Source: Candidatus Dojkabacteria bacterium (GTDB lineage: Bacteria > Patescibacteriota > Dojkabacteria > GCA-002793355). From it: a stretch of 53,197 nt of DNA. Numbering within the stretch: position 1 is the first letter of the stretch; the number at the start of each line of letters is the position of its first letter. The stretch spans positions 1 to 53,197 of the forward strand of contig WFZK01000008.1 in NCBI GenBank assembly GCA_015489595.1, read 5' to 3'. Below the pieces are notes generated by a model, which was given only the letters and a program-made list of their open reading frames with translations, was not told the DNA's origin and made no database searches. Shown piece after piece: positions 7,170 to 51,470 of the stretch. Made by a program: the position numbers and the translations under genes.

Positions 7170-7223
7170 GCGCATGGACTGAGCGAAAATTTTTTGTGTC
7201 AAATTTTCGCTCAGTCCATGCGC
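7170..7223. repeat. solo hairpin with a 23-bp perfect stem and an 8-nt loop
   Basis: gcgcatggactgagcgaaaattt (7170-7192) pairs perfectly with aaattttcgctcagtccatgcgc (7201-7223). It abuts the -10 box of the next gene. Confidence 0.85.
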
Positions 7224-9744: not shown

Positions 9745-9844
9745 GTTTGACTTGGCTAGATAGCTTGTGTGAGCACCATAGCGATGACTTTTTCTCGGGG
9801 TCTGGGGGCAAAATTGCTCTATGCGATTTTGCCCCCAGACCCCG
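9745..9844 (+). repeat. mosaic repeat copy (core-like segment plus hairpin 9796-9844)
   Basis: cggggtctgggggcaaaat / attttgcccccagaccccg forms a 19-bp perfect stem. The upstream cttggctagatagc...gcgatgacttttt resembles the core at 34905-34965. Confidence 0.7.
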
Positions 9845-9894: not shown

Positions 9895-9966
9895 GGGCGC
9901 GTAGCTCAGCGGTAGAGCGCTGTTCTTATAAAGCAGTGGTCGCAGGTTCGAATCCTGCCGCGCCCA
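9895..9966 (+). tRNA. tRNA-Ile, anticodon UAU (TAT)
   Basis: Cloverleaf folded by hand: acceptor GGGCGCG/CGCGCCC, D arm GCTC-AGCGGTA-GAGC, anticodon arm CTGTT-CTTATAA-AGCAG, variable loop TGGTC, T arm GCAGG-TTCGAAT-CCTGC, discriminator A. CCA is not encoded. Confidence 0.85.
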
Positions 9967-9970
9967 GGTC

Positions 9971-10002
9971 GGCGGCGGGCGGCATAAATGCCGCCCGCCG
10001 CC
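9971..10002. repeat. G/C-only arm hairpin directly after tRNA-Ile (possible terminator)
   Basis: ggcggcgggcggca-taaa-tgccgcccgccgcc forms a 14-bp perfect stem. Only a short TT follows. Confidence 0.7.
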
Positions 10003-13947: not shown

Positions 13948-14163
13948 GGTCTCACGCAGAAATCGATTTTTGCGTAAGTCCCGACTGGGCGTGGGGCAAA
14001 ATGTGGTAATGACACATTTTGCCCCACGCCCAAAGGTAGTTTGTCTTACGTCGGGTAGCGAAAAATAGTCCGTCAACAACGGGGAATTTAGAACAGCCAG
14101 AAGAATGATGAGTTTAGGGTGGCTGTGGCAAAAATCGACTTTTTCGATTTTTGCCACAGCCAC
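13948..14163 (-). repeat. mosaic repeat copy, inverted (extra hairpin 13948-13982, hairpin B' 13987-14031, core, hairpin A' 14119-14163)
   Basis: 19-bp perfect stem gggcgtggggcaaaatgtg/cacattttgccccacgccc and 20-bp perfect stem gtggctgtggcaaaaatcga/tcgatttttgccacagccac. The core is a near-identical reverse complement of 43736-43818. Confidence 0.9.
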
Positions 14164-14455: not shown

Positions 14456-15952
14456 ATGAGGCGTGGGGCAAAACAAAACGGTTCGCTGAAGAACAAAAGG
14501 GCAGAAAGAAAAAGTAGAGAGAAGAAGCCTGGAGTTAGTCTTTTTAGAGGTAGGACTGCTGGAGTAAGAAATGCACAGGAATTATCTATAACTACCGATG
14601 AGTTTTGGAAAAGACCTAAGGAGTTTTTCCCGTTTTTTTCTAAGAATCCACATCGATTATATATGGATTCTGCTACACAGACTTTGCTTCCTGCTGCAGT
14701 TATTGAGGTTGTAGCCCGTCGGCTGAGCGGGGCGGGGCGGCCGCAGGCCGCCCCGCCCCGCTTTTATTCAACTGTGCTGGATTTTTTCGGCGTGTACGGC
14801 AAAGCCAGATTTTATTTTATGCCTAGCCTTTCGCACGCGCTGTTCTATACGGCTTTTAGCCTTCTGTATGAATCTTTAAAACTACCTACTGCACTGATTA
14901 AGGCTATGTATTCTGCAAAATTAAGTGGGCAGGCCCATTCCGGTTTTTCTGAACTTTCTTATGCTTTTAACGCGGGCCGAGCTGGTTCTTCCGGTGAGGA
15001 TGCTACTAAGGACGCGGCGGTAAAAAAGAATTCTTCTGAGCGAGAGAATCAGCCTTTGGCAGCAGTTAGAGATTCTGCGGAGGGCTTGACTTTTAGTTTT
15101 GGCTCGTCGTCTGTTTCCCCAGCCAGCGCTGCTGATCTTTTAGCTTACGCAAAAGATCTATTAAAAAAAGCTTATGCAGATACAGGTGTGAAAAAGGTCC
15201 ATGTGTTTGCTCAGCAAGGTGCAGATTTTGGGCATTTTAGGCAACTTTGCCACGATTTTAACCTTGAGTATACAGCCTTACCTGCTCCGCTTGATTATGA
15301 GCAAATCGACCGGATGTTAGAGAAAGATGCGTCCGGTCTGAAGATCTTAGTAGTTAACTGGGTTGATAGATACACAGGCAAAATAGCTAATTTAGAAAAA
15401 CTAAGCGAGATAGCCGATAAACGCGATGTAGTTTTTGTTCTAAACGGAGCCTGGGGTGCAGGGATAATTCCTATTGATTTGTCAAAATACAAGATAGACT
15501 TGTTTATCTTTGCTGGCTATAAAATGTACGGACCACCTTCGACTGCAGGGGTTATTGTGACCGATCCACATATAAGATGGCGGGCTCCTCGGTATCTTGA
15601 CGCCGCGAACATTGCGGGGCTTGATGCTGCACTAGATTTTTTGACAACGATTGATAGAGACCGTATCATAAACGAACACATGGATCTTGTGGCCTATACT
15701 ATAGAGAAATTCGAGAAACGAGACGGGATTGAGCCTCTAGGTGGTACTGGTCTAGATAGAGCAGGAATATTTACATTCTCCGTTGATGACATCTCATCTT
15801 TTAAGGAGCTTGTGAAGCTTAATCAGTTAGATCTTAGAATAGAGTCTAAGAAGTCAAGAGTAAGGCTAAGTTTTGGGGTTTACAGCACAAGAGACGATGT
15901 AGACGAAGCGTTCTCTGTAATAGATGATTATCTTTCTAAGTTTGGTTTCTAA
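14456..15952 (+). CDS. class-V aminotransferase / cysteine desulfurase-like protein, highly divergent with a large insert
   Basis: LYMDSATQTLLPAAV (like YLDxAAT) and FAGYKMYGPPSTAGVIV (like SGHKxxGPxGxG, with the Lys retained and His replaced by Tyr). Roughly aa 90-235 is low-complexity or unalignable. Confidence 0.55.
   Translation: MRRGAKQNGSLKNKRAERKSREKKPGVSLFRGRTAGVRNAQELSITTDEFWKRPKEFFPFFSKNPHRLYMDSATQTLLPAAVIEVVARRLSGAGRPQAAPPRFYSTVLDFFGVYGKARFYFMPSLSHALFYTAFSLLYESLKLPTALIKAMYSAKLSGQAHSGFSELSYAFNAGRAGSSGEDATKDAAVKKNSSERENQPLAAVRDSAEGLTFSFGSSSVSPASAADLLAYAKDLLKKAYADTGVKKVHVFAQQGADFGHFRQLCHDFNLEYTALPAPLDYEQIDRMLEKDASGLKILVVNWVDRYTGKIANLEKLSEIADKRDVVFVLNGAWGAGIIPIDLSKYKIDLFIFAGYKMYGPPSTAGVIVTDPHIRWRAPRYLDAANIAGLDAALDFLTTIDRDRIINEHMDLVAYTIEKFEKRDGIEPLGGTGLDRAGIFTFSVDDISSFKELVKLNQLDLRIESKKSRVRLSFGVYSTRDDVDEAFSVIDDYLSKFGF
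14727..14761. repeat. G/C-rich palindrome (16-bp stem, 3-nt loop) inside the CDS, in frame
   Basis: gcggggcggggcggcc-gca-ggccgccccgccccgc encodes SGAGRPQAAPPR. Confidence 0.9.
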
Positions 15953-17784: not shown

Positions 17785-17817
17785 GGATGGGGGCAAAATG
17801 GGATTTTGCCCCCATCC
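17785..17817. repeat. solo hairpin (B-type) 24 nt after the murJ stop
   Basis: ggatgggggcaaaat-ggg-attttgcccccatcc forms a 15-bp perfect stem. Confidence 0.8.
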
Positions 17818-17971: not shown

Positions 17972-19135
17972 ATGGGAAACAGGGGAATAGTGCTAGAAAC
18001 AGAGGAATTTATTCCGCGCCTAATTTATGATCAGGTGGCGGACAAATTAAAGCCTAATCAGGTGGTAGTAATCTACGGAGCAAGGCAAGTAGGGAAAACC
18101 ACTCTTATTAACAAGCTAATAAGCAAGATTAAAAGAAAGTACCTCTTTGTCAACGCTGATTTTTCATCAGAGCGTGAGTGGCTTTCTTCCTTGAATTTGG
18201 AGGTGTATAAAAGATATCTAACAGGGGTAGAATTGTTGGTTATAGATGAGGCGCAGCGGGTAGAGAATATTGGTCTGGCACTAAAAATTATAGTGGACAA
18301 CATTCCTAGCATAAGAGTACTAGTTTCTGGCTCTTCGAGTTTAGAGTTGGCGAACAAAATAAGTGAGCCTCTCACAGGAAGAAAGTATGTGTTTAAGCTT
18401 TATCCTATGGCCGTCAAAGAATTAGAGACCGTGTATGCGAAAAACAGGTTAGTATCTATCCTAGAGGAACTTTTAATTTACGGTCAATATCCAAAGATCT
18501 TCAAGTTAGCTTCTAAGAGTGAAAAAGAGGATTATCTTTTTGAGGTGGCTGAATCGTATCTTTTCAAGGATGTGCTCAACCTAACGAATATCCGCAAGTC
18601 GAGCACTCTTTATAGGCTTTTGCAGTTGCTGGCTTATCAGATAGGATCAGAGGTTTCTGCCAGTAAGTTAAGTAATAGTCTGGATCTAGATAAAAAGACG
18701 GTATTAAAGTACCTTGATTTATTAGAACAGACCTTCGTGATACATTCTTTACCAGCTTTTTCAAGGAATAAAAGAAAGGAGGTAAGTAAATCTCGGAAGT
18801 ATTACTTTTGGGACCTTGGCATAAGGAATGCTTTAATCAAAGACTTTAGATCATTAGATCTTAGAAATGATGTAGGAGGTATATGGGAGAATTTTATCGT
18901 TAATGAGCGTATTAAGTTAGCAGAGTACTTAAATCTCCGAAAAGATTTTTACTTTTGGAGAACATACTGGGGAAGCGAGATCGATTTGGTAGAACAGAGT
19001 GTTTCTGAGTTGATAGGGTTTGAGATTAAATTTGGGACAAAAAGGGTAAAACCTCCTAAGATGTGGACTAACCTTTACCCCCAGGCCAAGTTTTATCTGA
19101 TTAATAAGGAAAATTGGATAGATTGGGTGGGGTAG
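17972..19135 (+). CDS. AAA+ ATPase with a C-terminal PD-(D/E)xK-like domain (DUF4143-type)
   Basis: Walker A VIYGARQVGKTTL, Walker B LLVIDEAQ, and C-terminal SEIDLVEQ...GFEIKFG. It is a paralog of 27419-28678. Confidence 0.7.
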   Translation: MGNRGIVLETEEFIPRLIYDQVADKLKPNQVVVIYGARQVGKTTLINKLISKIKRKYLFVNADFSSEREWLSSLNLEVYKRYLTGVELLVIDEAQRVENIGLALKIIVDNIPSIRVLVSGSSSLELANKISEPLTGRKYVFKLYPMAVKELETVYAKNRLVSILEELLIYGQYPKIFKLASKSEKEDYLFEVAESYLFKDVLNLTNIRKSSTLYRLLQLLAYQIGSEVSASKLSNSLDLDKKTVLKYLDLLEQTFVIHSLPAFSRNKRKEVSKSRKYYFWDLGIRNALIKDFRSLDLRNDVGGIWENFIVNERIKLAEYLNLRKDFYFWRTYWGSEIDLVEQSVSELIGFEIKFGTKRVKPPKMWTNLYPQAKFYLINKENWIDWVG

Positions 19136-26974: not shown

Positions 26975-27046
26975 TCGCGGGGGGTGGATTCGAACCACCA
27001 ACCTCCGGGTTATGGGCCCGGCGAGCTGCCATTGCTCCACCCCGCA
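26975..27046 (-). tRNA. initiator tRNA-fMet, anticodon CAU
   Basis: The minus strand reads TGCGGGG-TG-GAGC-AATGGCA-GCTC-G-CCGGG-CCCATAA-CCCGG-AGGTT-GGTGG-TTCGAAT-CCACC-CCCCGCG-A. Initiator hallmarks are three G-C pairs at 29-31/39-41 and A11-U24. The 1-72 pair is a weak U-G. The sequence is very similar to E. coli tRNA-fMet. Confidence 0.85.
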
Positions 27047-27053
27047 GTGAAGT

Positions 27054-27062
27054 ATTATAGCA
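27054..27062 (-). promoter_or_regulatory. extended -10 (TGCTATAAT, minus strand), 7 nt before nucleotide 1 of tRNA-fMet
   Basis: The minus strand reads tgcTATAATacttcac, then the tRNA 5' end. Confidence 0.45.
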
Positions 27063-27092
27063 TATGTTTCTTGCAGTTCTTTGGGTCTGCAC

Positions 27093-27138
27093 GGGAGTGG
27101 GGCAGAAACTGGCTTTTTCGATTTCTCCCCCAGCCCCG
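27093..27138. repeat. degenerate A-type hairpin
   Basis: gtggggcagaaactggctttttcgatttctcccccagcccc forms an imperfect stem. Confidence 0.45.
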
Positions 27139-27402
27139 CGCACCTCTTTGCAGTTTTTCTGAATATCTATCTTTGTTTTGATTAGGAGTAGTTTGTTTGT
27201 CCGTCGTGGAGACTGTATCTAAACATTTCATACGTGATAAGAGGCTTAAGGGGTGAGTATGCATAGACTCTGTGTCAAGCACTAATAGTGAAGATTTAGG
27301 AGCTAGGATAAAATTTGGAAAAAGGTCGGTTTTGCTCCACGCCTATCTAATGTCGAGATTAGTGTAGCTTAGTATACTAATCTTTAAATTTTTAGTATAT
27401 TA

Positions 27403-27411
27403 TGGTATACT
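27403..27411 (+). promoter_or_regulatory. extended -10 (TGGTATACT), 7 nt before ATG 27419
   Basis: Sequence reads tggTATACTaatcttgATG. The 13-mer gtatactaatctt also occurs at 27372-27384. Confidence 0.4.
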
Positions 27412-27418
27412 AATCTTG

Positions 27419-28678
27419 ATGCCAGGTGTGGACACATTAATACTGCAAAACCCATGGTGGAAGACCTCACGTGTTCCTGAGGTGTTTTTGGGTAGAAGGA
27501 GAAAAGAATTCTATCGTAAGATACAGAAGTTTTTACCTCTCAGGCAGATCCTTTTAATCTATGGGCTAAGAAGAACAGGAAAAACAACTTTTTTATATCA
27601 GCTTATTCAGGATTTCTTAAATAGTGGTGTGGATCCGCGTCATATCTTGTATTTTTCGTTTGATGAAAAAGTGCTTAATTTAAAACAGCTTCTAAATACC
27701 TATGAGACTTATATTTTAAAACAGCCGATCACCGAAGAATCTAGAATCTACATGTTCCTAGATGAAATACAAAAGTTATCAGATTGGCAAGATCAGGTCA
27801 AACTCATCTATGATAGATTTCCTAAGATAAAGATATTTTTGTCTGGCTCAGCGTCTGTTAATCTTCAGAGAAATGTACGCGAGAGTTTAGCAGGTAGGGT
27901 ATTTGAGTTTGAGTTTCCTCCTTTAAGCTTTGGGGAATTTTTGGAATGGAAAAAAGCTAAAGTTGGAGATCTGCATAAGAAAGAGTTAAAGCTCCTGGCC
28001 CGTGAGTATGTGTTAAAAGGAGGGTTCCCGGAGATTATAGGTGAGCAAAGCAGCGAGGTCATTCGTATGTATCTTAAAAGTTCAGTACTTTATAAAATCT
28101 TGGAACAAGACTTACCTGCTGTATTTGGTTTGCGAGATCCTGAATTTTTAAAGGCTCTTGTTGAGTACCTTTTCTCCCAGCCCGGTAGCATTATAAATTA
28201 TGATTCTTTAAGCTCCCATTTCGGGCGAAGTAAGGTAACCGTGATTAATTATGTGTTTTATTTAAAGTATGCGTTACTAGTCCGTGAGGTTAGAAATTTT
28301 AGACCCAATTTGCTTCTTGCCTCTAGAAAAGGAAGGAAACTTTACCCTTACAATCCTGCTTTTTGTTTTGTCTATATTCCGGAGGACCAGTTTTTTAAGA
28401 GAGCTTTAGAAACAGCAGTGGCTTATGCGCTTTCGGCAAGGTACTATTACAGGAATCGTTTCGAGGTAGACTTCGTTTTAAGAAAACAGAATAGGCTTTA
28501 TCCGGTAGAGGTAAAAGCAGGTGAGCCTGATGTTAGCCAGGTAGCGAAGTTTTTGAAAAAGTTCGGAGGTAGTAAAGGTTATGTAGTGACAGAAGACTAT
28601 GAAGAGGTTTGGGGAAACATAGAGATTCTGCCTCTTTGGAAGGTGATGTTAGAAGGGGTGGGGGCGGAATTTGTTTAA
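27419..28678 (+). CDS. AAA+ ATPase with a C-terminal PD-(D/E)xK-like domain (DUF4143-type), paralog of 17972-19135
   Basis: Walker A LIYGLRRTGKTTFL, Walker B MFLDEIQ, and C-terminal FEVDFVLR...YPVEVKAG. Confidence 0.7.
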   Translation: MPGVDTLILQNPWWKTSRVPEVFLGRRRKEFYRKIQKFLPLRQILLIYGLRRTGKTTFLYQLIQDFLNSGVDPRHILYFSFDEKVLNLKQLLNTYETYILKQPITEESRIYMFLDEIQKLSDWQDQVKLIYDRFPKIKIFLSGSASVNLQRNVRESLAGRVFEFEFPPLSFGEFLEWKKAKVGDLHKKELKLLAREYVLKGGFPEIIGEQSSEVIRMYLKSSVLYKILEQDLPAVFGLRDPEFLKALVEYLFSQPGSIINYDSLSSHFGRSKVTVINYVFYLKYALLVREVRNFRPNLLLASRKGRKLYPYNPAFCFVYIPEDQFFKRALETAVAYALSARYYYRNRFEVDFVLRKQNRLYPVEVKAGEPDVSQVAKFLKKFGGSKGYVVTEDYEEVWGNIEILPLWKVMLEGVGAEFV

Positions 28679-28700
28679 ACAAATTCCGCCCCCACCCCTT
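28653..28700. repeat. 48-nt perfect palindrome centred on the ATPase stop codon
   Basis: aaggggtgggggcggaatttgttt|aaacaaattccgcccccacccctt. The TAA stop at 28676-28678 spans the centre. Confidence 0.9.
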
Positions 28701-28744
28701 AAAATAGGTTCTCTGGGCGGTTGTGGAGGCTCTATGAGGGACTT

Positions 28745-29137
28745 TTACTTGTCTTTGTGTCCTACTGTCAGCAACTTAAGCCACATTTTGTATGGTGGAG
28801 GTGGAGACGGTGTCGGTGTAGGTGTTGTGTTGGGCAGCTGCTGTGTAAAGATTACGAGCTTCTCTCCGGGTTTGTAATAATTTAAGCTATTGCGCAGCTG
28901 TTGTTCTAGATAAAACGGCGATGTGACGTAATCTAGCTCATTCTGTTTTTTGATGATTTGGACATATTGCTTCTGAAGCTGTTTAAAACGCGGGCGATAA
29001 AGGCTTATCATGTAAAGGGAGGCTTTAATGCTTTTGTATGAATTGTAAATAAGTATGCTTGAGACGATTAGGAGTAGTAGCGTGGTTATAATGTTCTGGA
29101 AGCTGGGCTTGGTTTTAGGCTTTCTGGGCAAGACCAT
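28745..29137 (-). CDS. septum formation initiator family protein (FtsB/DivIC-like) with a P/T-rich tail
   Basis: N-terminal TM TTLLLLIVSSILIY, a coiled-coil segment, YLEQQLRNSLNYYKPGEKLVIF, and the tail TPTPTPSPPPP. Confidence 0.55.
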   Translation of the reverse strand: MVLPRKPKTKPSFQNIITTLLLLIVSSILIYNSYKSIKASLYMISLYRPRFKQLQKQYVQIIKKQNELDYVTSPFYLEQQLRNSLNYYKPGEKLVIFTQQLPNTTPTPTPSPPPPYKMWLKLLTVGHKDK

Positions 29138-32100
29138 AGGATTTTAGTTTTTCAAGTAACGTAAAGAGGGCATCAGGATAGTTGGCTTTGTCCATCTGGG
29201 TTTCTAGCCATGCCGTAAAATCGACTGAGATAAGGTCAGGGTAGTGTTTTTCAAGATAACTAAAAGTGGTTATGCCTTTTTTGGTTGGTATTAGTCTGCC
29301 TTTTCTGTCAATTATGTATCCACGCGTAAGGAGGGTTTTTATAATTATGGCATAGGTTGAAGGTCTGCCTAGGCCTAGCTCTTGCATCTTCTCGATTATT
29401 TGTGCGTATGTGTATGGTTTGTAACGAGGCTTGTAGTTTAGGCTCGCTGGGGCTTTAATTGTCTTTTGGTCGTTAAGGGCTGTGATCGGTTTGGGTTTAA
29501 GATATCCTATGGCGTAGAACCCTGGATCTATCACTTCTACTGTGACTTCGTCTTCGGCAAGTTTCTGGTTATTGTAATAGACTTGAATTTTTGCTTTTTT
29601 TATCTTTGCTTTTTGAGCTTGGGAGGTGATAAATCTTTGAAGAATTAGATTGTACAATTTAATGTGTTGGGAGCTTAACGGTAGTTCGTGGCTAAGCAGA
29701 GGTTTTGTAGGACGGATGCACTCGTGGGTGCCTGGAGTGCCGAAGGGGCGGGGCGCGGCGCGCGCGCCGCGCCCCGCCAGCTTAATAAGCTGGATGGCAA
29801 GGTTACGGCCCGCTTTGGACACGTACGTAGAATCGGTTCGGTGGTATGTGATGTAGCCTTGTTCGAATAGATCTTGGGCAAGCTCCATCGTTTTAGAGGA
29901 GGGGAACCTCAGTCTTCTAAATGCCTCCTTTAAAAGCTCGGCTGTGCTAAACGGCGGGGGTGGAGCTTGCTCCTTTTGGCTTACTCCTACAACTTTAATC
30001 TCTACTTCTTTTATAGGTTCGTTGGGGTTATCTTCAAGCCAGTATTGTAAGATTTGATCTTGTAGCTTAATCTCAAGTTGAGGATACTTCTGCTTTGTTT
30101 GTTCGAAACGCTGTATTATTAAACCTAGAACCGGGGTTTGCACACGACCGGCCGAAAGATTTTTCTCTTTGAACTGTTCCTGAAGTTTTTCGCTTAGAGC
30201 AAAGCCTACCCAACGGTCAGCTATTCGTCTGGTTAATTGCCCTGCAACTTTGGTTGTATCCGTATCGCGCAGGTTTTGGAGCTGTTTTAGGAACTCTGAT
30301 GGAGTTATCTCGTGCAGCTCCATGCGCTTTACATTTGGGTTAAGAGGGTGAAGATAAAGCTTAAGATCGTAGGCTATTTTTTCACCTTCAGTATCAGGAT
30401 CTGTGGTTATATAAACAGAATCAGTATAGTATGCTAAAAGCCTTAGCTCGTCGATTATGTCCTTCTTGGTTAGGAAGCGTTTGCTTCCACATATAGGACA
30501 CACGGTGGTTTCTGTATCTACTTTTCTGCCGCACTTTGCACACATTTTGATTGGACAGAACCAAGGGATAAGTTCGGGTTTAAGAAGGGTGCCGTAATAA
30601 CCAGGGTTGTGTTTAAGATCAGTTATATGGCCTGCTGAAGCGGTGATGATAAAAGTTTTGTTGCCTAAGCTGGCCTCGTAGGCATAAATGTTACCGTACT
30701 GTTTCTTTGCAGGTTTTGAGAAGAATCCCGCGAGAGTTTTTGCTTTGGTCGGAGACTCCACGATCACTAGAACTGTTTCTACTAGGTCAGGTAGATGTTT
30801 AGCTTTGGTCTGTTTTTTTAGTTTTTCTCTTTCTTTTAAGATTTTTTCAAGTATATTGTTAAGCTTCTCTTCAGATAGAGTGCTCATATCTTTAAACTCT
30901 GCGGCAAGGCCCGTTTTTCTAAGGTGTTCAAGCAGCAAGGATATAGGTTTTTCAGATGTGTCGATGATGCAGGAGAGTCCTAGGGTCAGACCGAATGGGC
31001 TTAGCCTGCTTGTCCTGCCTGATGCTTGGATGTATGTTTTTGTGTCTGGGATAAGTGCAAATCTTCTCTGGTCTTTCTTTACGCAAGGGAAAGGAAAGGT
31101 TGGTAAGGTGCAGTCTGTCTGTTTGAGCAGTGTGCTGATAAGGTCCGCTACTGGTTCTATCTTTTTGCGAAGCGTTGGGTTATTCTCTACAAATGTTTTA
31201 GAGAGATTAAGGTATGGTTCTAATTGTTTTCTTAGCTTAAGATAATCTTTAAGTGCTAAAACTCGAGCGCGGGTCAGTACTGAGGCTAGAAACAGGAGCC
31301 TTTTAGGCGAGAGGGTTACTTCAAGGGGTACTCTTAAGATAGGCGTTCCGACAAAAACAGCGTGCTTTATAACTTCTGGAAGGTTTACCCCTCTAACGAG
31401 TGGATTTTTGGGATTAGCTTTAGTTACCACTGCTGCATATTCTCCGTTTTCGAACTGTTCTAGTTTGTTTTCGAACTCATCATAGGTTAATACTGCGATG
31501 TTGTTGGTTTTAAGGACCTCTACGGTTTTATCAAAATCATACGGTTCAGATACGAATACAATTGTTCCTGAGTTAAGTTTTTTTACAATTCTGGCCGTTT
31601 CTTTATAGGGGTCCTGAGTGATCTTGTATAGGTCGATAATGTTGCGCAGAGTGGTGTTGGTTGATCCTAGCTCAAAGTTAAGTAGCTCTCTAAATAGCTT
31701 GATTTTGTTGGTTTTAGGGACAAAGGTCGCTGATGCTGAGATTATTTGGGTGTTTTTTCTCTTGATCTTTCTTTTTAGCTTTTCTGCTAGATCAAATTTA
31801 CCGTAAGCTTTAAGCTTAATTATCTTTTTGGCAAGATCAATATCATCGATAGAGAAACCAGCTAGCATTAAAACTTTTTCTATATTTGAAGCCTGTCTTA
31901 AAAGGGAGTCAGCATCGTCAATAAAGATAAATTGGAAATCACGCGGTAGCTTGTCAAAATTTTTGTGCATAAAGGCGGTGGTTGTGACTAGAATGTCTAT
32001 GTTTTCGGGGTGGTTAAGTAGAGCTTGTTTGTCTTGTTTTGTGAGAACTCCTAGGATCTTTTTACCTACGCGGTTGTACTTAGTTAGCCTTTCAGCCACC

Positions 32101-32495
32101 TGTTTTACCAATACCCTGGTGGGTACTATGTAGTATGTTTTTCTGATGGTAAAGAGGCTGTAGAGGATACCGAAGGTGGTTTTGCCAAGTCCGGTTGGAG
32201 CAAGGATAGCAAAGCTTTCATGGTTCAGGGCCCTTTTGACCCAATATTTAAGGAGTCTGAAAGGCTCCGCTTTTAGGGCGTCTTTAGCAAACTTTATGAA
32301 GTGATCTAGTCTCACTTCGAGTTCGCATATGTCATGTGTGGCGGGGATTGTTTGGCATAGATGCTTTTTTAATAACTCTGAGTATGAAAGTTCGTGTTTG
32401 TTGCAGGCCCCTTTTTCTAAGATCTCAGTGTTTTCCGCGGCTGAGCCGCAGACGGGACAGAGAAGATCGTAAAGGATTTTAGGCTCAGGTTGCAT
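29115..32495 (-). CDS. rgy: reverse gyrase (helicase-like domain fused to type IA topoisomerase)
   Basis: N-terminal Zn finger CPVCG...C. Helicase motifs are I (LAPTGLGKTTFG), II (FIDDADS) and VI (QASGRTSR). Toprim motif is VIVESPTKAKTL. There is an internal Zn ribbon (CAKCG...CPICG), the topo IA active site GYITYHRTDSTYVS, and THECIRPT. Length is 1126 aa. Confidence 0.9.
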   Translation of the reverse strand: MQPEPKILYDLLCPVCGSAAENTEILEKGACNKHELSYSELLKKHLCQTIPATHDICELEVRLDHFIKFAKDALKAEPFRLLKYWVKRALNHESFAILAPTGLGKTTFGILYSLFTIRKTYYIVPTRVLVKQVAERLTKYNRVGKKILGVLTKQDKQALLNHPENIDILVTTTAFMHKNFDKLPRDFQFIFIDDADSLLRQASNIEKVLMLAGFSIDDIDLAKKIIKLKAYGKFDLAEKLKRKIKRKNTQIISASATFVPKTNKIKLFRELLNFELGSTNTTLRNIIDLYKITQDPYKETARIVKKLNSGTIVFVSEPYDFDKTVEVLKTNNIAVLTYDEFENKLEQFENGEYAAVVTKANPKNPLVRGVNLPEVIKHAVFVGTPILRVPLEVTLSPKRLLFLASVLTRARVLALKDYLKLRKQLEPYLNLSKTFVENNPTLRKKIEPVADLISTLLKQTDCTLPTFPFPCVKKDQRRFALIPDTKTYIQASGRTSRLSPFGLTLGLSCIIDTSEKPISLLLEHLRKTGLAAEFKDMSTLSEEKLNNILEKILKEREKLKKQTKAKHLPDLVETVLVIVESPTKAKTLAGFFSKPAKKQYGNIYAYEASLGNKTFIITASAGHITDLKHNPGYYGTLLKPELIPWFCPIKMCAKCGRKVDTETTVCPICGSKRFLTKKDIIDELRLLAYYTDSVYITTDPDTEGEKIAYDLKLYLHPLNPNVKRMELHEITPSEFLKQLQNLRDTDTTKVAGQLTRRIADRWVGFALSEKLQEQFKEKNLSAGRVQTPVLGLIIQRFEQTKQKYPQLEIKLQDQILQYWLEDNPNEPIKEVEIKVVGVSQKEQAPPPPFSTAELLKEAFRRLRFPSSKTMELAQDLFEQGYITYHRTDSTYVSKAGRNLAIQLIKLAGRGARAAPRPFGTPGTHECIRPTKPLLSHELPLSSQHIKLYNLILQRFITSQAQKAKIKKAKIQVYYNNQKLAEDEVTVEVIDPGFYAIGYLKPKPITALNDQKTIKAPASLNYKPRYKPYTYAQIIEKMQELGLGRPSTYAIIIKTLLTRGYIIDRKGRLIPTKKGITTFSYLEKHYPDLISVDFTAWLETQMDKANYPDALFTLLEKLKSYGLAQKA
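29747..29778. repeat. 32-nt perfect G/C-only palindrome inside rgy, in frame
   Basis: ggcggggcgcggcgcg|cgcgccgcgccccgcc encodes AGRGARAAPRP just upstream of the conserved THECIRPT motif. Confidence 0.9.
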
Positions 32496-32500
32496 GTACT

Positions 32501-32506
32501 ATTATA
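32501..32506 (-). promoter_or_regulatory. -10 box TATAAT (minus strand), 5 nt before the rgy ATG
   Basis: The minus strand reads cgcTATAATagtacATG. Confidence 0.45.
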
Positions 32507-32535
32507 GCGTTAAAGGGTGATGGATCTATTAAGTG

Positions 32536-32674
32536 GGCCTTTAGCGAAAATCGGTTTTTGCTAAAGGCCATGGATTACCATCACTCTGGCCGTTTTAAAT
32601 TATCTATTTGGCAGGTGATCTCCTACGACGGGGGCGGGGGGAAAATCGACTTTTTTGATTTTCGCCCCGCCCCC
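32536..32674 (+). repeat. mosaic repeat copy (hairpin A 32536-32569, short core, G-rich hairpin 32629-32674)
   Basis: ggcctttagcgaaaa/ttttgctaaaggcc, the core ccatcactctggccgttttaaattatc, and gggggcgggggggaaaatcga/tgattttcgccccgccccc. Confidence 0.8.
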
Positions 32675-32688
32675 AGTGGCTTTTTGAG

Positions 32689-32694
32689 TATAAT
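32689..32694 (+). promoter_or_regulatory. -10 box TATAAT, 6 nt before ATG 32701
   Basis: Sequence reads gagTATAATtgtactATG. Confidence 0.45.
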
Positions 32695-32700
32695 TGTACT

Positions 32701-33747
32701 ATGTCTAAGATCGCTATTGTGGGTGGGGGGCTTTCTGGTATAACCTATGCATTTTTTAAGAAGAGTCTGTCGCCTGGTAGTCGGATTTACATCTTTGACC
32801 CAAAGTCTGATTTTTCTGTTTATCCCTCTACAGGTCTGCTTACTTATCCTAATCTAAAAAAATTACAGCGGTGGTTTGATCTTAACCCTTTTGTGTTAGC
32901 TACGTATTCCGGGTGGGGGTTGCTTAAAGAACAAAACAGCCGGTTAGTGTCCCACAGAATTATAAGATTCAGGCATCCATTCATGGTTTATTGGGATGTG
33001 GGAGATTTTATAAACAAGCTTTATCAGAAGCTAAAGATTAAAAGAGTGGTCTCGTTTGTTGATGAGGTTAGATATTCAAAAAGCGGCTGGGAGTTAAAAA
33101 CTCGTAATTCTTGGTACAAGGGCTTTGATAGATTAGTGCTGGCAGCAGGCTCAGGAGTCGGAAGATTTCGTGTTGTAAAGAAGTGCCTTAAGACCGATCC
33201 TTTTGCCAGGAGCTTTTTTGCCATAGAGGAGGTCTATAGAATTCCTTCTTTTAATCTAGATAAAGACGTGGTCTGGTTTTATCCTTATGGAGCCTATGGC
33301 GCGTGGGCTGTTTCCGTAGATGGGAAGTTAAAAATAGGTGCAGCAGTAGATGCTGACAAGAAAGACAACGCTGCTGATCTTTTAAAGCTTATAAAAAATT
33401 CTTTTTATCTTAAGTTAGAAAATCGAATTTCTGTCGTGTCAAATTTTTTACCAGGCAGTGGGGTAGCATTATTGCAGCGCCGCAGTGCTACCTGTAGAAA
33501 TCTTGACATTGTAGGGGATGCAGGAGGTTTTTGCGGTCCTCTTGCTCTTGATGGACTTTATTATGCTGTGCTTAGTAGTGTTTGGGCCTCGCATGGTAAA
33601 AAGGTGCCGGCTTGGTTTGTTGCCAAGTCGAGAGCGGAGCGATATCTTTCTTTATTGGTTGCTAAGTATAATTTTGCTAGGAGTATTGTTTTTAAATTTA
33701 GCCCTATTCTGCTTAGGTTGTGGTTTCTAATAAAGCAGAGGTTTTAG
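32701..33747 (+). CDS. FAD/NAD(P)-dependent oxidoreductase (geranylgeranyl reductase-like fold)
   Basis: N-terminal Rossmann motif KIAIVGGGLSGITYAF, with a later GDAGGF. Confidence 0.55.
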   Translation: MSKIAIVGGGLSGITYAFFKKSLSPGSRIYIFDPKSDFSVYPSTGLLTYPNLKKLQRWFDLNPFVLATYSGWGLLKEQNSRLVSHRIIRFRHPFMVYWDVGDFINKLYQKLKIKRVVSFVDEVRYSKSGWELKTRNSWYKGFDRLVLAAGSGVGRFRVVKKCLKTDPFARSFFAIEEVYRIPSFNLDKDVVWFYPYGAYGAWAVSVDGKLKIGAAVDADKKDNAADLLKLIKNSFYLKLENRISVVSNFLPGSGVALLQRRSATCRNLDIVGDAGGFCGPLALDGLYYAVLSSVWASHGKKVPAWFVAKSRAERYLSLLVAKYNFARSIVFKFSPILLRLWFLIKQRF

Positions 33748-34874: not shown

Positions 34875-35020
34875 TTGGCCTTGCTTAAAGCCCCTTTAAA
34901 TTACTCTTCTCTTGGCTGCTTTGGATGATCCTGTGGATAGGCAACTTCGTTACGCTATGAAAAAAGAGCCCATTTCGGGCGTGGGGCAAAATGCGGGACC
35001 GCCGCATTTTGCCCCACGCC
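34875..35020 (+). repeat. mosaic repeat copy (right arm of hairpin A, core, hairpin B 34976-35020)
   Basis: ttgcttaaagcccc, then the core ctcttctcttggctgctttggatgatcctgtgg, then the 20-bp perfect stem gggcgtggggcaaaatgcgg/ccgcattttgccccacgccc. Confidence 0.85.
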
Positions 35021-35032
35021 CTTTATCTTTCT

Positions 35033-37095: not shown

Positions 37096-37199
37096 GCCTG
37101 GGAGTAGCTCTGTAGTAGTTTCTAAGGTATCGTTACGATTCCTGCGTCGAGGAAGGATCTCCTCTGTGAGGGTCTGTGTAATTTGTCTTCTAGTTGTTT

Positions 37200-37205
37200 T
37201 ACAAT
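37200..37205 (+). promoter_or_regulatory. -10 box TACAAT, 5 nt before ATG 37211
   Basis: Sequence reads tttTACAATtgtatATG. Confidence 0.35.
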
Positions 37206-37210
37206 TGTAT

Positions 37211-38563
37211 ATGCAACATTTGTCGACTTCAGAGGTAAGAAGGAACTCGGGGGTACCCGAGGAGCGTAAGCTTCGGGAGAGGAATTTGGAAGCGTTGGTG
37301 TTGACCCTCCCAAATTTAGATGCCATGGGATCGATGCTTGCTCGGGGAGTTATTTGGGACAGGTTGAGTTTCTATGTGGCTTTTGGTGGAGTTTTCAACA
37401 GACAAAAATACGGTTCTTGGTTTCAAGGAGAGGAGGAGTTTCGGGGGACGTTACAGGATATCCAAGAGGCGTATAATGTTAAGCAGGGGGTTGCTAGCTT
37501 GAATCCCACAGATCCCATAGACTTTGCTTTATTAGAAAGGGTTAAGGCTTCACATATTTATCCAGGGCCTGAGGTAAGGGAGTTACGAGATAAATATTTG
37601 AGCTTCCTAATAAGAAGTTACACATTGGCTTTAGCTCAGGCTATCGTAAGGGAGACGTTGGTTTGGGGAGGTCAGGTTCGTGGAAGAGGGAGGGAATTAA
37701 TACGCGAACACTATAGGTCGGCGATTAGAGCGTATTTCGAGGGGGATTCGTCTGCTAAAATAGAGAATCTTCTTGAGGCAGGGGAATTAGTTTTCCTTTA
37801 TAGGGAGAGCGAACGAGGTGGGGCCATTTCTTCAGATTTTACCAGAGAAAGATATGGCTGGGATAGGGCTATATCTATTTTTCATTCTTTAAATAGTTTA
37901 TCCCATCCTCTCAGAGGACAAGAGTTAAGTAGGGGGATAAGATTAATTGATGCTTTGCATAATACGGCTCATAATGCAGGATTCCTATTAGGGCATATGA
38001 TAAGGAATGGCCCTGGTTTGTTAACTACTCTGCGTCTTTTTTCTAGGGATGCTAACGATTATTATCTGGCATCTCCTTACGCACGGTCCGTGGTTAGTAG
38101 GTTCTCTCTGGAGTGGATACCTCGCAGGAAAGGCCCTCTTTATATTCTGGATTTAAAGGACTTCGAAGCGTTGGTGGAGAGGTGGGAGCGAGATAAGGAT
38201 ATCGTAGTTGGGGCAAGTCCCTCAGTTCTTACAAGAGTGTTTCTCTGGGAGGTTGCTCTGTACCATAATGAGGAAGGATATAGATTCATCAGGGATGCCA
38301 TTATGAGATCCCCTGTGCTGCGTAGGTACGTAGATACCGAAGCATTGGAGATTCTTGATTTATATACGGCGTTAAGGAGGTACAATAGGACCAGGATTCC
38401 CTCTAAGAGGCTGATAGATTTTCTTAGAAGTCGGTTAGAGAGACTTAGGGCGACGGTTAGGTTGAGGAAAGGTGTTGACGTCGAAGAAGCAGATGAACTG
38501 GGGCGGTTAAATTTAGAAATTAGAACTCTTGGGGAGATACTAAGTAAACAGGAAGCTATCTAG
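37211..38563 (+). CDS. hypothetical protein (ORFan, R/E/L-rich)
   Basis: Long ORF; the track start is 37166. ATG 37211 fits the window-wide -10-N5-ATG pattern. No confident domain; an R-x5-H string occurs (RLIDALH). Confidence 0.5.
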   Translation: MQHLSTSEVRRNSGVPEERKLRERNLEALVLTLPNLDAMGSMLARGVIWDRLSFYVAFGGVFNRQKYGSWFQGEEEFRGTLQDIQEAYNVKQGVASLNPTDPIDFALLERVKASHIYPGPEVRELRDKYLSFLIRSYTLALAQAIVRETLVWGGQVRGRGRELIREHYRSAIRAYFEGDSSAKIENLLEAGELVFLYRESERGGAISSDFTRERYGWDRAISIFHSLNSLSHPLRGQELSRGIRLIDALHNTAHNAGFLLGHMIRNGPGLLTTLRLFSRDANDYYLASPYARSVVSRFSLEWIPRRKGPLYILDLKDFEALVERWERDKDIVVGASPSVLTRVFLWEVALYHNEEGYRFIRDAIMRSPVLRRYVDTEALEILDLYTALRRYNRTRIPSKRLIDFLRSRLERLRATVRLRKGVDVEEADELGRLNLEIRTLGEILSKQEAI

Positions 38564-40049: not shown

Positions 40050-40055
40050 AGGATA

Positions 40056-40228
40056 GGGGCGTTAAGCGAAAATCGAAGAAAGTCGATTTTCGCTTAAGAC
40101 CCCGCGAATTGTTATTCTTATGGCTATTTTAAATCTTGATGTTGAGAGCGCCATTTCGATACCGTGGGTAAGGCAACCTACTTAAGGGGGTGAGGTAAAA
40201 CGTGATGCTAACATAGTTTGCCTCACTC
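40056..40228 (+). repeat. mosaic repeat copy (hairpin A 40056-40103, core, hairpin B 40188-40228)
   Basis: ggggcgttaagcgaaaatcga/tcgattttcgcttaagacccc. The core attgttattcttatggctattttaaatcttgatgttg...gtaaggcaacctactta aligns with 43736-43818. Confidence 0.85.
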
Positions 40229-40267
40229 TCAATAGAGCCTTTTGACTTGAGTGGTAGCAGGTTTGTG

Positions 40268-40459
40268 TTAAGCCTTGGAATAATCGATATACCTGCGTAT
40301 GTAGTCTATATCGATTTTAAATTTGGGTTTCATGTGTTTGTATTTTCCGGCGATGGCCAAAATACCTTTAGAAGGGTGTTTTGAGGTACGGCTCTTGTCT
40401 TTGTGGCTTGGAGGCGTTTTTCTGAGGGCTTTCTTAGATGTTCTTCGAGCTTGGCTCAT
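40268..40459 (-). CDS. small basic hypothetical protein
   Basis: 63-aa K/R/S-rich ORF. No motif recognised, and it could be spurious. Confidence 0.25.
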   Translation of the reverse strand: MSQARRTSKKALRKTPPSHKDKSRTSKHPSKGILAIAGKYKHMKPKFKIDIDYIRRYIDYSKA

Positions 40460-40525
40460 TTTGAAACTGAGCTTAAGATTATTACGTTTTACGAGAACTT
40501 CTTCTTTAAGTATACCCTATCTCCA

Positions 40526-42479: not shown

Positions 42480-42620
42480 GTCAATTTTGCCCGTCTTGTG
42501 GAGCATGTTATTTTTATACTAGTTGGAGGATCTACCAGTGGATGATTCCAAACAGGGGGCGTGGCAACTTTCTAGAGGCATGGGCAAGAATCGACTTTTT
42601 ACGATTCTTGCCCATGCCTC
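42480..42620 (-). repeat. mosaic repeat copy, inverted (degenerate B', core, hairpin A' 42575-42620)
   Basis: 19-bp perfect stem gaggcatgggcaagaatcg/cgattcttgcccatgcctc. It ends exactly at the response regulator stop (42621). Confidence 0.75.
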
Positions 42621-43646
42621 TCACACCCACTCTTTCCCACACTTAAGACAAACAAGTCGGGCGTTGTATTCTGAGATAAGTTTACCTGTTTGCGGATTTT
42701 TCTGCTTTACGGGGATTAGCTTAAGTCCAATAGGCCCTCCGCAGAGAGGACATTTACCTGTCCGAACCTCTGGAGGTGCGGTTTTTAAAAGCTGCCTGAC
42801 TTCTGGTGCCTGAAGGTTAAGGGGAATAACATATACAGATGGTTGAGATTCAGACAGGATCATCTCTTTTATCTTTTCAACCACCTGCAGCAGTGTAGTA
42901 TCAGCCTTGATCAGAAACATATCTGCTCCCATCTCGTAGGCTTTTTGAATGTCTTCAGGGGCTCCCAGGTTACTTAAAATTATTATCTTAGGCCTGTAGG
43001 TAGATGTGTATTCTCTGAGGGCTTTAAGAGCCGCCCAACCGTCCATCTCTGGCATTAAGATATCCAGCAGAATAATCTGTGGTCTTTCTTTGATAGCTTT
43101 GACTATTCCCTCTTCACCATTTGAGGCTGTGATTACATTAAAGCCAAACTTCTTAAGTACGAATTCGTATTGATATCTAACATCACTGTTGTCTTCTATG
43201 ATTAAAACTTTATACTTTGCTAGTCTTGGATCTTTAATGCTTTGAGGTTGTACATCTGGGATTCCGCTTGGATCATCTTCCCAATGTGGCTCTGATTGAG
43301 GCGCGGGTTGAGCTGTTGGCTCTGGGACTGTGGTAGCAAGTCCTGGTTCTGGAGCAGGTTGAGACAGTGTGGGTTGTTGAGGGGCAGATGGAGTTATTTG
43401 GTTGTTAGGTTGTGTAGTATTGGCTTGGGGTGGAGTATTTGGTTGGGGTAGATTCTGAGTTTGTGGGGTTGCTGAAGGGGGTGAAGTAGGTGAAGTTACA
43501 GTAGAAGCAGGGGGCGCTGTAGTTTGGGCAGTGTTTTGAGGTGATGTGCTAGAAGGTGCTTGATTTTGAGTAAAGGATGCTAGAGGATCTTGGTTTGTGT
43601 CTTCAGGCGGAATGTTTCCACTTAAACCTGGTGGTATTTGGCCCAT
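42621..43646 (-). CDS. response regulator: P/T/Q-rich N-terminal region, receiver domain and C-terminal zinc ribbon
   Basis: KVLIIEDNSDVRYQYEFVLKKFGFNV...ILLDILMPEMDGW, and C-terminal CPLCGG...CLKCG. Confidence 0.8.
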   Translation of the reverse strand: MGQIPPGLSGNIPPEDTNQDPLASFTQNQAPSSTSPQNTAQTTAPPASTVTSPTSPPSATPQTQNLPQPNTPPQANTTQPNNQITPSAPQQPTLSQPAPEPGLATTVPEPTAQPAPQSEPHWEDDPSGIPDVQPQSIKDPRLAKYKVLIIEDNSDVRYQYEFVLKKFGFNVITASNGEEGIVKAIKERPQIILLDILMPEMDGWAALKALREYTSTYRPKIIILSNLGAPEDIQKAYEMGADMFLIKADTTLLQVVEKIKEMILSESQPSVYVIPLNLQAPEVRQLLKTAPPEVRTGKCPLCGGPIGLKLIPVKQKNPQTGKLISEYNARLVCLKCGKEWV

Positions 43647-43684: not shown

Positions 43685-43862
43685 TAGGGGGCTCACGCAA
43701 AAATTGAAAAAATCAATTTTTGCGTGAGCCCCCTAAACTTATCATCCTTCTGGCTGTTCTAAATTTCCCGTTGTTGGCGAATGATTTTTCGCTACCCCGC
43801 GTAAGGCAGGCTACTTTAGGGCGTGGGGAGAATATGGTATTGACACATTTTGCCCCACGCCC
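43685..43862 (+). repeat. mosaic repeat, best-preserved copy (hairpin A 43685-43735, core 43736-43818, hairpin B 43819-43862)
   Basis: 23-bp perfect stem tagggggctcacgcaaaaattga/tcaatttttgcgtgagcccccta. The core holds atccttctggctgttctaaat. Hairpin B is gggcgtgggg...ccccacgccc. Confidence 0.9.
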
Positions 43863-51311: not shown

Positions 51312-51470
51312 GGCGGGGGCAAAAATCGGCTTTCCCGATTTTTGCCCCCGCCTCTTCTCAAAAGTATCCTTCCTCCGGTCGTTTTAAATCATCCTTTTGT
51401 AGGCAATCTCCCTTTACTACAGGGAATAGGGCTCTTTTGGGGTTTAAGGCAAAATATGGAGATATAACAT
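51312..51470 (+). repeat. mosaic repeat copy (hairpin A 51312-51352 starting 2 nt after the gatB stop, core, degenerate hairpin B)
   Basis: 18-bp perfect stem ggcgggggcaaaaatcgg/ccgatttttgcccccgcc. The core holds atccttcctccggtcgttttaaatcatcc. Confidence 0.8.

Follow-up and report, generated by a model that had tools for sequence, protein, structure and literature searches.

Coding DNA is normally purged of perfect palindromes. Rickettsia palindromic elements and yeast mitochondrial GC clusters are in-frame palindromic elements in protein-coding genes and represent GC-rich islands in AT-richer genomes. They add residues relative to orthologs, exist in many near-identical copies and show presence/absence polymorphism. 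Perfect inverted repeats within intact protein-coding genes, translated by inference, have been described in the mitochondria of Nematomorpha, where protein and stringent secondary structure are preserved together (2019, PMC6649704). Arm homogenisation, spacer inversion and multi-codon replacement within genes have been ascribed to polymerase template switching (PMC8604942). Here, we analyse a perfect 32-nt palindrome composed of G and C only, which is located within the reverse gyrase gene of a Candidatus Dojkabacteria bacterium (assembly GCA_015489595.1, contig WFZK01000008.1). The whole stretch of DNA analysed, 53,197 nucleotides from a hydrothermal-vent metagenome, is referred to as the window. 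We see an even chance that this is a translated coding palindrome which was made and is kept perfect by hairpin template switching at the DNA level, within a lineage-specific burst of thermostable hairpins.

Life at high temperature has reverse gyrase as its hallmark enzyme. The palindrome, its host gene and the codons concerned are located as follows.

29747-29778, strandless: perfect 32-nt G/C-only palindrome with 16-bp arms and the symmetry centre between 29762 and 29763
29115-32495, minus strand: reverse gyrase gene, 1126 aa, with a helicase-like N-terminal half, a type IA topoisomerase C-terminal half and the catalytic Tyr884 in ITYHRTDS
29745-29777, minus strand: eleven codons GCG GGG CGC GGC GCG CGC GCC GCG CCC CGC CCC, translated as AGRGARAAPRP, residues 907-917

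The two arms of 16+16 nt, GGCGGGGCGCGGCGCG and CGCGCCGCGCCCCGCC, are 100% self-complementary and adjoin each other with a 0-nt spacer. The original prediction of a perfect, 32-nt, G/C-only palindrome lying in frame in the topoisomerase half is therefore correct. Including two extra G's on the left, the run free of A and T spans 34 nt (29745-29778), and the expected number of 34-nt G/C runs in the window, which has 43.2% G+C, is ~2e-8. Given such a run, perfect 16-bp symmetry has a probability of 2^-16. A chance origin of the palindrome is excluded. The calculated energy of the RNA hairpin is -35.2 kcal/mol at 37 C, -16.4 kcal/mol at 80 C and -10.5 kcal/mol at 95 C; that of the DNA hairpin is -23.2 kcal/mol at 37 C. 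On its flanks (...cgaagg and agctta...) the GTAG/CGTC tag is absent. No T-run adjoins the palindrome on either strand, and the site, 630 nt from the stop codon, was not listed by a terminator scan. An explanation by restriction sites was also considered and is unsupported, as the window shows no unusual avoidance of GCGC and CGCG sites.

The identity of the host gene is clear. A PDB sequence search with the ORF at 29115-32495 gave end-to-end matches to the reverse gyrases of Archaeoglobus (A. fulgidus, 1GL9, E=3e-175) and T. maritima (E=2e-155), and the Pfam domains DEAD/ResIII, Toprim and Topoisom_bac were detected. The protein is assigned to the reverse gyrases because it combines a helicase-like domain with a type IA topoisomerase that contains Toprim and the catalytic Tyr motif. 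The palindrome is a perfect inverted repeat lying wholly within this intact ORF. Its peptide AGRGARAAPRP starts 23 residues past the catalytic tyrosine of ITYHRTDS and is followed by the four residues FGTP and then by GTHECIRPT. In an AlphaFold2 model of the protein (mean pLDDT 86, pTM 0.80) the peptide starts at the end of a helix (894-906) and is nearly all non-regular, with a block pLDDT of 80-86.

The gene as a whole has 42.5% G+C and a GC3 of 41.6%. Several codons of the palindrome are rare in the rest of the gene: GCG accounts for 7 of 71 Ala codons, CGC for 7 of 49 Arg codons and GGG for 4 of 44 Gly codons. With the gene's own codon usage, the probability that AGRGARAAPRP would be encoded by G/C-only codons is 3e-6. 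This atypical codon choice points to a signal at the level of the nucleic acid and not of the protein. Indeed, protein selection would not give perfect central symmetry; the constraint acts on the nucleic acid.

It had been proposed that the palindrome inserts ~11 residues into the enzyme. To compare the site with that of other reverse gyrases, the protein was aligned (MAFFT) with its 29 best homologs, several of them labelled Minisyncoccia or Patescibacteria, which are at most 44% identical in this alignment and 43% identical by BLASTP. In addition, the interval between the two flanking motifs was measured in a set of 120 sequences (query and 119 homologs), in 113 of which both motifs could be located. 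From Y884-HRTDS to G922-THECIRP the query has 32 residues. The corresponding interval from Y-HRTDS to HE(C/A)IRP ranges from 27 to 35 residues, and 32 is the mode (88 of 113, query included). AGRGARAAPRP aligns without gaps to homolog segments such as QNKEEISYLRS, and a run of Ala, Gly, Arg and Pro only was absent from this site in all homologs compared. Orthologs hence carry a segment of the same length without palindromic DNA, and the proposed insertion was not borne out. Because the interval has the modal length and the alignment is gapless, the palindrome appears to overwrite 11 codons of a linker of variable sequence and constant length, adding none and leaving the protein length unaltered. 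An insertion offset by an equal deletion would be unparsimonious; the nearest palindrome-free homologs are only 43% identical, and no homolog was found in the range of 43% to 90% identity. A scan of representative genome contigs with a protein pattern for this reverse gyrase gave no match, so that the lineage is not among the representative genomes.

The two arms do not both encode conserved protein. Arg916, encoded by the penultimate codon of the palindrome, sits on a column that is conserved in at least 90% of the sequences, and the remainder lies on variable positions. A separate difference to the homologs was noticed at 29685-29700, where ~10 residues after IRPTKPL (residues ~932-937) are missing; all 29 aligned homologs have a segment of the TVDELIEQSI type there. 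The same site is the part of the AlphaFold2 model with the lowest confidence (pLDDT below 50 at residues 935-937).

In-frame translation, as originally claimed, is supported by a frame that is open throughout and by the conserved linker length, and the palindrome is probably read through by the ribosome. Alternatively, the hairpin could remain untranslated through ribosome bypass or RNA removal, like T4 gene 60 or the mitochondrial 'byp' elements. A very stable hairpin within a coding region would suit this explanation, and the G/C-only composition recalls byp elements. However, 32 is not divisible by three, so that leaving out exactly the palindrome would put the rest of the gene out of frame. 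If 33 nt were left out instead, the linker would fall 11 residues short of the modal 32, and the conserved Arg916 would be lost. The frame is also open throughout, and we consider bypass highly improbable.

Palindromes of length k or more break de Bruijn graphs, and a fold-back chimera or a k-mer graph error could in principle have created the repeat. Indeed, the Logan contigs of the reverse gyrase gene all end at the palindrome. The concern about an assembly artefact was addressed with assemblies and k-mer contigs. A second assembly of the same population (L001, NCBI metagenome-assembled genome (MAG) GCA_027052685.1), which has 36 differences to the window in 20.5 kb, contains the identical palindrome. 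It is likewise identical in L093 and L094, assemblies from other samples, and altogether unchanged across four MAG or metagenome assemblies from different samples and studies and the k-mer contigs of three runs (X1, X2 and X4). In the k=31 contigs of the source run X1, the left contig ends at 29776 and the right one begins at 29749; both have a coverage of 37-42x and each reads 30 of the 32 nt. One further X1 contig of 32 nt is the palindrome itself. Together with the reading frame and the homology, which carry on across the palindrome, these data leave an artefact with next to no probability.

To place the palindrome in context, perfect hairpins with a stem of at least 11 bp were counted. The window contains 15 of them, compared to 0.05 in shuffled sequences. 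Twelve of the 15 lie between genes or at gene ends and have in common a G-rich outer stem and a GCAAAAT core. Just two are clearly inside genes, namely the two G/C-only ones. The hairpins discussed below are the following.

14726-14762, plus strand: copy 1 of the in-gene GC hairpins, with 17-bp arms and loop GCA, encoding SGAGRPQAAPPR within a degenerate SufS-like gene (14456-15952)
9971-10002, plus strand: GC-rich hairpin with 15-bp arms and loop AA, 4 nt after tRNA-Ile(UAU), without a T-run
9895-9966: tRNA-Ile, anticodon UAU
28653-28700, strandless: 48-nt perfect palindrome of the GCAAAAT-core family, between a convergent AAA_14 gene and the operon of a 130-aa gene and reverse gyrase
32629-32674, strandless: member of the intergenic hairpin family, upstream of reverse gyrase
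7170-7223, 9796-9844, 13986-14032, 14119-14163, 17785-17817, 28653-28700, 32629-32674, 34977-35021, 40056-40103, 42574-42621, 43685-43735 and 51312-51352: the 12 members of the intergenic hairpin family

Members of the intergenic family are 33-54 nt long and mostly perfect; their outer stem is G-rich and their inner stem is GCAAAAT(CG). They are present in ~10 of the 28 intergenic regions, some following a gene, some preceding one of three tRNA genes at a distance of 32-50 nt and some in divergent promoter regions. In all 15 hairpins G outnumbers C in the 5' arm; owing to the palindromic nature of the repeats, both strands show this same polarity. Stability at 80 C is about equal for the compact G/C-only stems (-16 to -21 kcal/mol) and the longer mixed intergenic stems (-9 to -19 kcal/mol). 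The original prediction had pointed out a resemblance between the peptides of copy 1 and of the reverse gyrase palindrome (copy 2) and had attributed it to the DNA. Indeed, both palindromes are G/C-only, and such DNA encodes only Ala, Gly, Arg and Pro.

Comparison of the sister hairpins between relatives revealed direct signs of rearrangement. In X2 and X6, copy 1 has kept 34 of 34 stem bases while its flanks have 8 differences in 30 nt, and the sole change is in the loop, where GCA is replaced by its reverse complement TGC. In X5, the loop AA of the hairpin at 9971-10002 is replaced by its reverse complement TT, and one C>T change in the stem leaves a G.T pair. Inversion of the spacer was therefore seen in both sister hairpins; the reverse gyrase palindrome has no spacer to show one. 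Compensated changes were observed in the intergenic family. Both arms of the hairpin at 32629-32674 are rewritten by several compensated changes in L093 and L094 and still pair perfectly. Between L093 and L094, the hairpin upstream of reverse gyrase differs by a C:G to A:T swap, and every version is perfectly paired. In the hairpin after the ArgRS gene, CATGGGC/GCCCATG has changed to CATTGGC/GCCAATG, a compensated exchange of G:C to T:A.

The abundance of hairpins differs strongly among relatives. In L088 and L090, whose ArgRS is 57-59% identical and which have 35-37% G+C, 22 kb each were free of perfect hairpins with a stem of 11 bp or more, compared to 15 in the 53 kb of the window; L090 shares the local gene order of the window. 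A relative with 94% identical ArgRS (~89% nucleotide identity) carries such hairpins. The hairpin burst thus appears to be specific to a narrow lineage of vent bacteria. A ~92%-identical copy of the hairpin at 43685-43735 was found at a non-homologous site in relative L092 (264-309), which implies that some copy-and-paste process exists in the lineage.

The host gene of copy 1 (14456-15952) probably encodes an orphan, non-catalytic SufS-like protein. It retains the PLP lysine (AGYKMYGP, with Tyr in place of His) and lacks both the GGG...EAGTPN segment and the catalytic Cys loop; the palindrome is followed by ~160 lineage-specific residues. Its best homolog among 1.8 billion representatives has only E=8e-15, and homolog searches with this protein gave nothing alignable across the region of the copy-1 palindrome.

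Divergence at the reverse gyrase locus was analyzed in the related assemblies. The genes of L093 and L094 have 352 and 348 differences to the window in 3381 positions (89.6% identity, no indels), of which ~235 are in synonymous codons. The palindrome itself has no difference in its 32 nt in either assembly. The mean of the gene is 3.3 differences per 32 nt, and 6-8% of 32-nt windows are unchanged. An X4 contig matches the window at all 29 palindrome bases that it covers and differs from it at 8 of the 60 positions on the right-hand side of the palindrome, and the palindrome bases covered by X2 contigs are unchanged as well. The surrounding sequence is also conserved, in two features:

29597-29793, minus strand: low-divergence block (gene positions 2703-2899), with 1 (L093) or 2 (L094) differences compared to ~20 expected
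29777-29793, minus strand: 7-bp hairpin CCAGCTT-ATT-AAGCTGG (mRNA sense), DNA energy -5.7 kcal/mol, z -4.7, the same in L093 and L094

Synonymous sites within the block are conserved too. The palindrome lies 15 nt inside the block edge, near the edge that is 5' in the mRNA. With 3 differences, the segment 29583-29782, which nearly coincides with the block, is the minimum of all 200-nt segments in the 7.5 kb aligned (mean 19, sd 8); one other segment has four. A third lineage, represented by run X3, shows the same contrast. The block has no Rfam match and no promoter-like site, and the RNA fold of the block without the palindrome was not significant (z -1.6 and -1.2). A recent recombination tract bounded by the palindrome and a constraint at the nucleotide level are both candidate explanations for the block. 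The 7-bp hairpin overlaps the palindrome end by two bases, for which the two stems would compete.

This conservation bears on the possibility that the palindrome is a hairpin selected for a function. In the mRNA, it might pause ribosomes after the catalytic-tyrosine region, act as a barrier to nucleases or serve as a processing site; as duplex or cruciform, it might be a site of protein binding or recombination. Its identity in three lineages at ~10% divergence is consistent with such a role, as is its position on the border of the 200 nt that have diverged least within the locus and in which synonymous sites, too, are unchanged. The hairpin would still be folded at 95 C, and structured RNA in low-GC thermophiles is typically G/C-enriched. 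The sister next to the tRNA gene tolerates a G.T pair (G.U in RNA), as RNA stems do. However, the two host genes are unrelated, an RNA hairpin needs no symmetry through its centre, and the conserved block holds no extra structure. Furthermore, no Rfam family was matched and the context resembles neither a promoter nor a terminator. We regard a selected functional hairpin as a possible but doubtful explanation.

Template switching between the arms, which we favour, would account for the symmetry. The arms would fold into a hairpin in single-stranded DNA or RNA, which would remain stable at 80-95 C. In the course of replication or repair, the growing strand would switch its template from one arm to the other, so that one arm is copied onto the other and the repeat is kept perfect; any spacer between the arms would be flipped by the same event. 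As outcome, several adjacent codons would be rewritten without a change in length. The product might be tolerated because the residues encoded by G/C-only codons are limited to Ala, Gly, Arg and Pro and, in this case, fall in a non-helical linker that retains the conserved Arg916. Selection for a thermostable hairpin or GC-biased correction could explain the G/C-only composition and the lack of change. Perfect arm identity combined with a length-neutral change of many nucleotides is indeed what was found in the reverse gyrase gene. Since the flipped loops and compensated arm changes in the same genome match the published hallmarks, hairpin template switching is the most economical mechanism, and we infer that it both generated and maintains the palindrome.

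Several points weigh against this explanation. Template switching copies local sequence, and arms of 100% G/C in a gene of 42% G+C need an extra force or a foreign origin. Correction of one arm by the other would not in itself be expected to lower the substitution rate; nevertheless, the palindrome shows no compensated change. To explain pure G/C and the complete lack of change, selection for a stable hairpin, biased correction or a foreign origin has to be invoked in addition. No ancestral imperfect repeat is demonstrable, the next homolog being only 43% identical. The conservation statistics are modest, and the palindrome adjoins a block that is conserved anyway. Finally, translation of the palindrome is suggested by two observations, the open frame and the conserved length. 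Whether the palindrome has a selected role at the nucleic-acid level or is a tolerated by-product appears to us about evenly balanced.

Alternatively, a mobile palindromic element, a short GC-rich hairpin of the REP, MITE, RPE or mitochondrial GC-cluster type, could have landed in frame, followed by a deletion of equal length, or could have replaced its target. The composition foreign to the gene would fit such an element, and both in-gene palindromes share GCGGGGCG[G/C]GGCG arms. The whole phenomenon is lineage-specific, and the intergenic family is dispersed, including the ~92%-identical copy of its member at 43685-43735 at a non-homologous site of L092. Against this stands the absence of any net gain in length compared to the aligned homologs. 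The 32 nt of the palindrome do not make up a whole number of codons, and no duplication of a target was seen next to them. No second copy of the 32-mer was found in the 53-kb window or in the X1 contigs of the source metagenome. There is also no empty site, as the palindrome is present and identical in every relative examined (L001, L093, L094, X2 and X4); runs of study P3 had too little depth to reach across the site. Among the ORFs of the 53-kb window, neither a transposase nor a RAYT (Y1) gene was detected.

Copies elsewhere were searched for as well. A contig (L058) sharing 30 nt with copy 1 was considered as a second genomic copy and rejected: it belongs to an unrelated co-resident organism of 64% G+C, in which the hairpin precedes a T-run and is an ordinary terminator. 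A scan for the copy-1 stem found 34 contigs, all with 61-74% G+C. With a degenerate DNA pattern for both in-gene palindromes, 52 single hits were obtained, almost all in high-GC Actinomycetota and similar groups, with 0 hits in relatives and 0 in viral contigs. On this evidence we judge a mobile element to be unlikely. The original prediction had offered an active invasive element or a functional hairpin as alternatives. A hairpin acting at the nucleic-acid level remains the best way to understand the palindrome. The invasive part is weakened for this copy by the lack of a second copy (window and X1 contigs), of presence/absence polymorphism, of a target duplication and of a transposase.

A bolder proposal can be made. 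G/C-only palindromes could be new, length-neutral "overwriting" elements of a thermophile, whose hairpins, stable at the temperature of growth, rewrite coding DNA by hairpin-templated synthesis and spread between strains via homologous recombination initiated at the hairpin; or they could be thermostable mRNA or DNA signals within essential genes. If overwriting elements exist, the near-identical tract of ~200 nt that ends at the palindrome would be the footprint of such a spread from strain to strain. We think that this proposal is quite unlikely to be right.

The surroundings of the reverse gyrase gene were compared with those in relatives. The region ~26975-33747 corresponds to 5173-6959 in L090, where no more than two small ORFs separate KsgA from the XerC-like gene. 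In the window, the same interval contains tRNA-Met, an AAA_14/DUF4143 ATPase, the 130-aa gene, reverse gyrase and a 348-aa ORF. The syntenic order in L090 is L27, polyprenyl synthase, KsgA ... XerC-like, FtsH, ArgRS. From this gene order, reverse gyrase may sit in a lineage-specific insertion. Gene content also differs from L091 and L092 at 37166-38563 and 40050-40524, at ~89% nucleotide identity. A 465-aa ORF between FtsH and MazG is missing from L092, and between DUF763 and ArgRS, L091 and L092 have a PIN/MazE toxin-antitoxin pair and a DHH gene. All 2-kb bins of the window have a positive GC skew (0.05-0.26), also in the region of the minus-strand reverse gyrase gene; this uniformity suggests one replication arm rather than an effect of transcription. 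An rve_3 integrase-core fragment is located at 80-535, and two AAA_14/DUF4143 paralogs are encoded at 17972-19135 and 27416-28678.

An all-G/C hairpin of 16 bp can thus reside in a reverse gyrase gene and stay unchanged at ~10% divergence of the gene, with the protein length unaltered. The same genome shows direct signs of hairpin-driven DNA rearrangement, namely flipped loops and compensated arm changes. Should these patterns extend to the whole genome, the lineage would offer a natural system for studying how template switching makes new protein sequence in bacteria, and how thermophiles handle extremely stable secondary structures of DNA and mRNA. A practical consequence is that such palindromes break k-mer assemblies inside genes, leading to fragmented gene calls in metagenomes.

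Among known systems, REP elements with their RAYT transposases (Di Nocera et al. 2013, PMC3733652) are likewise short GC-rich stem-loops in many copies; the intergenic GCAAAAT-core hairpins of the window look REP-like in position and dispersal. REPs are found outside genes and are tagged with GTAG or CGTC, whereas the reverse gyrase palindrome lies within a gene, has neither tag and is single-copy; the 53 kb also showed no RAYT gene. The intergenic family of the window also lacks the GTAG/CGTC tags. Three properties of Rickettsia palindromic elements and GC clusters, namely added residues, near-identical copies (in the window and X1 contigs) and presence/absence polymorphism, were not found for the reverse gyrase palindrome. 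Intrinsic terminators of high-GC bacteria (L058 and 33 other contigs) have nearly the same G4C-type stems, and 30 nt of copy 1 are identical to one of them. They differ in being intergenic, in genomes of 61-74% G+C, and in L058, the one examined, a T-run follows. The palindrome has no T-run and is located 630 nt from the end of a gene of 42% G+C.

The Nematomorpha repeats agree with the palindrome in being perfect inverted repeats inside intact coding genes. They reach up to 284 bp, are mitochondrial, and both of their arms encode conserved protein, whereas the repeat described here has 32 bp, is bacterial and G/C-only, and lies in a variable linker with one conserved residue. Template-switch (quasipalindrome) mutations (Abraham & Hazkani-Covo 2021, PMC8604942; in E. 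coli and yeast, e.g. PMC7202029) are alike in their perfect arms and length-neutral multi-codon replacement, and also in spacer inversion, seen here in the sister hairpins, and compensated arm changes, seen here in the same genome. The published repeats are short and of ordinary composition, and an ancestral imperfect repeat is visible; here, the 16-bp arms are 100% G/C and conserved across lineages, with no ancestor available. The closest precedents are therefore the template-switch inverted repeats in yeast genes and the mitochondrial coding palindromes of Nematomorpha, and what is new in this palindrome is that it is bacterial, thermophilic and G/C-only.

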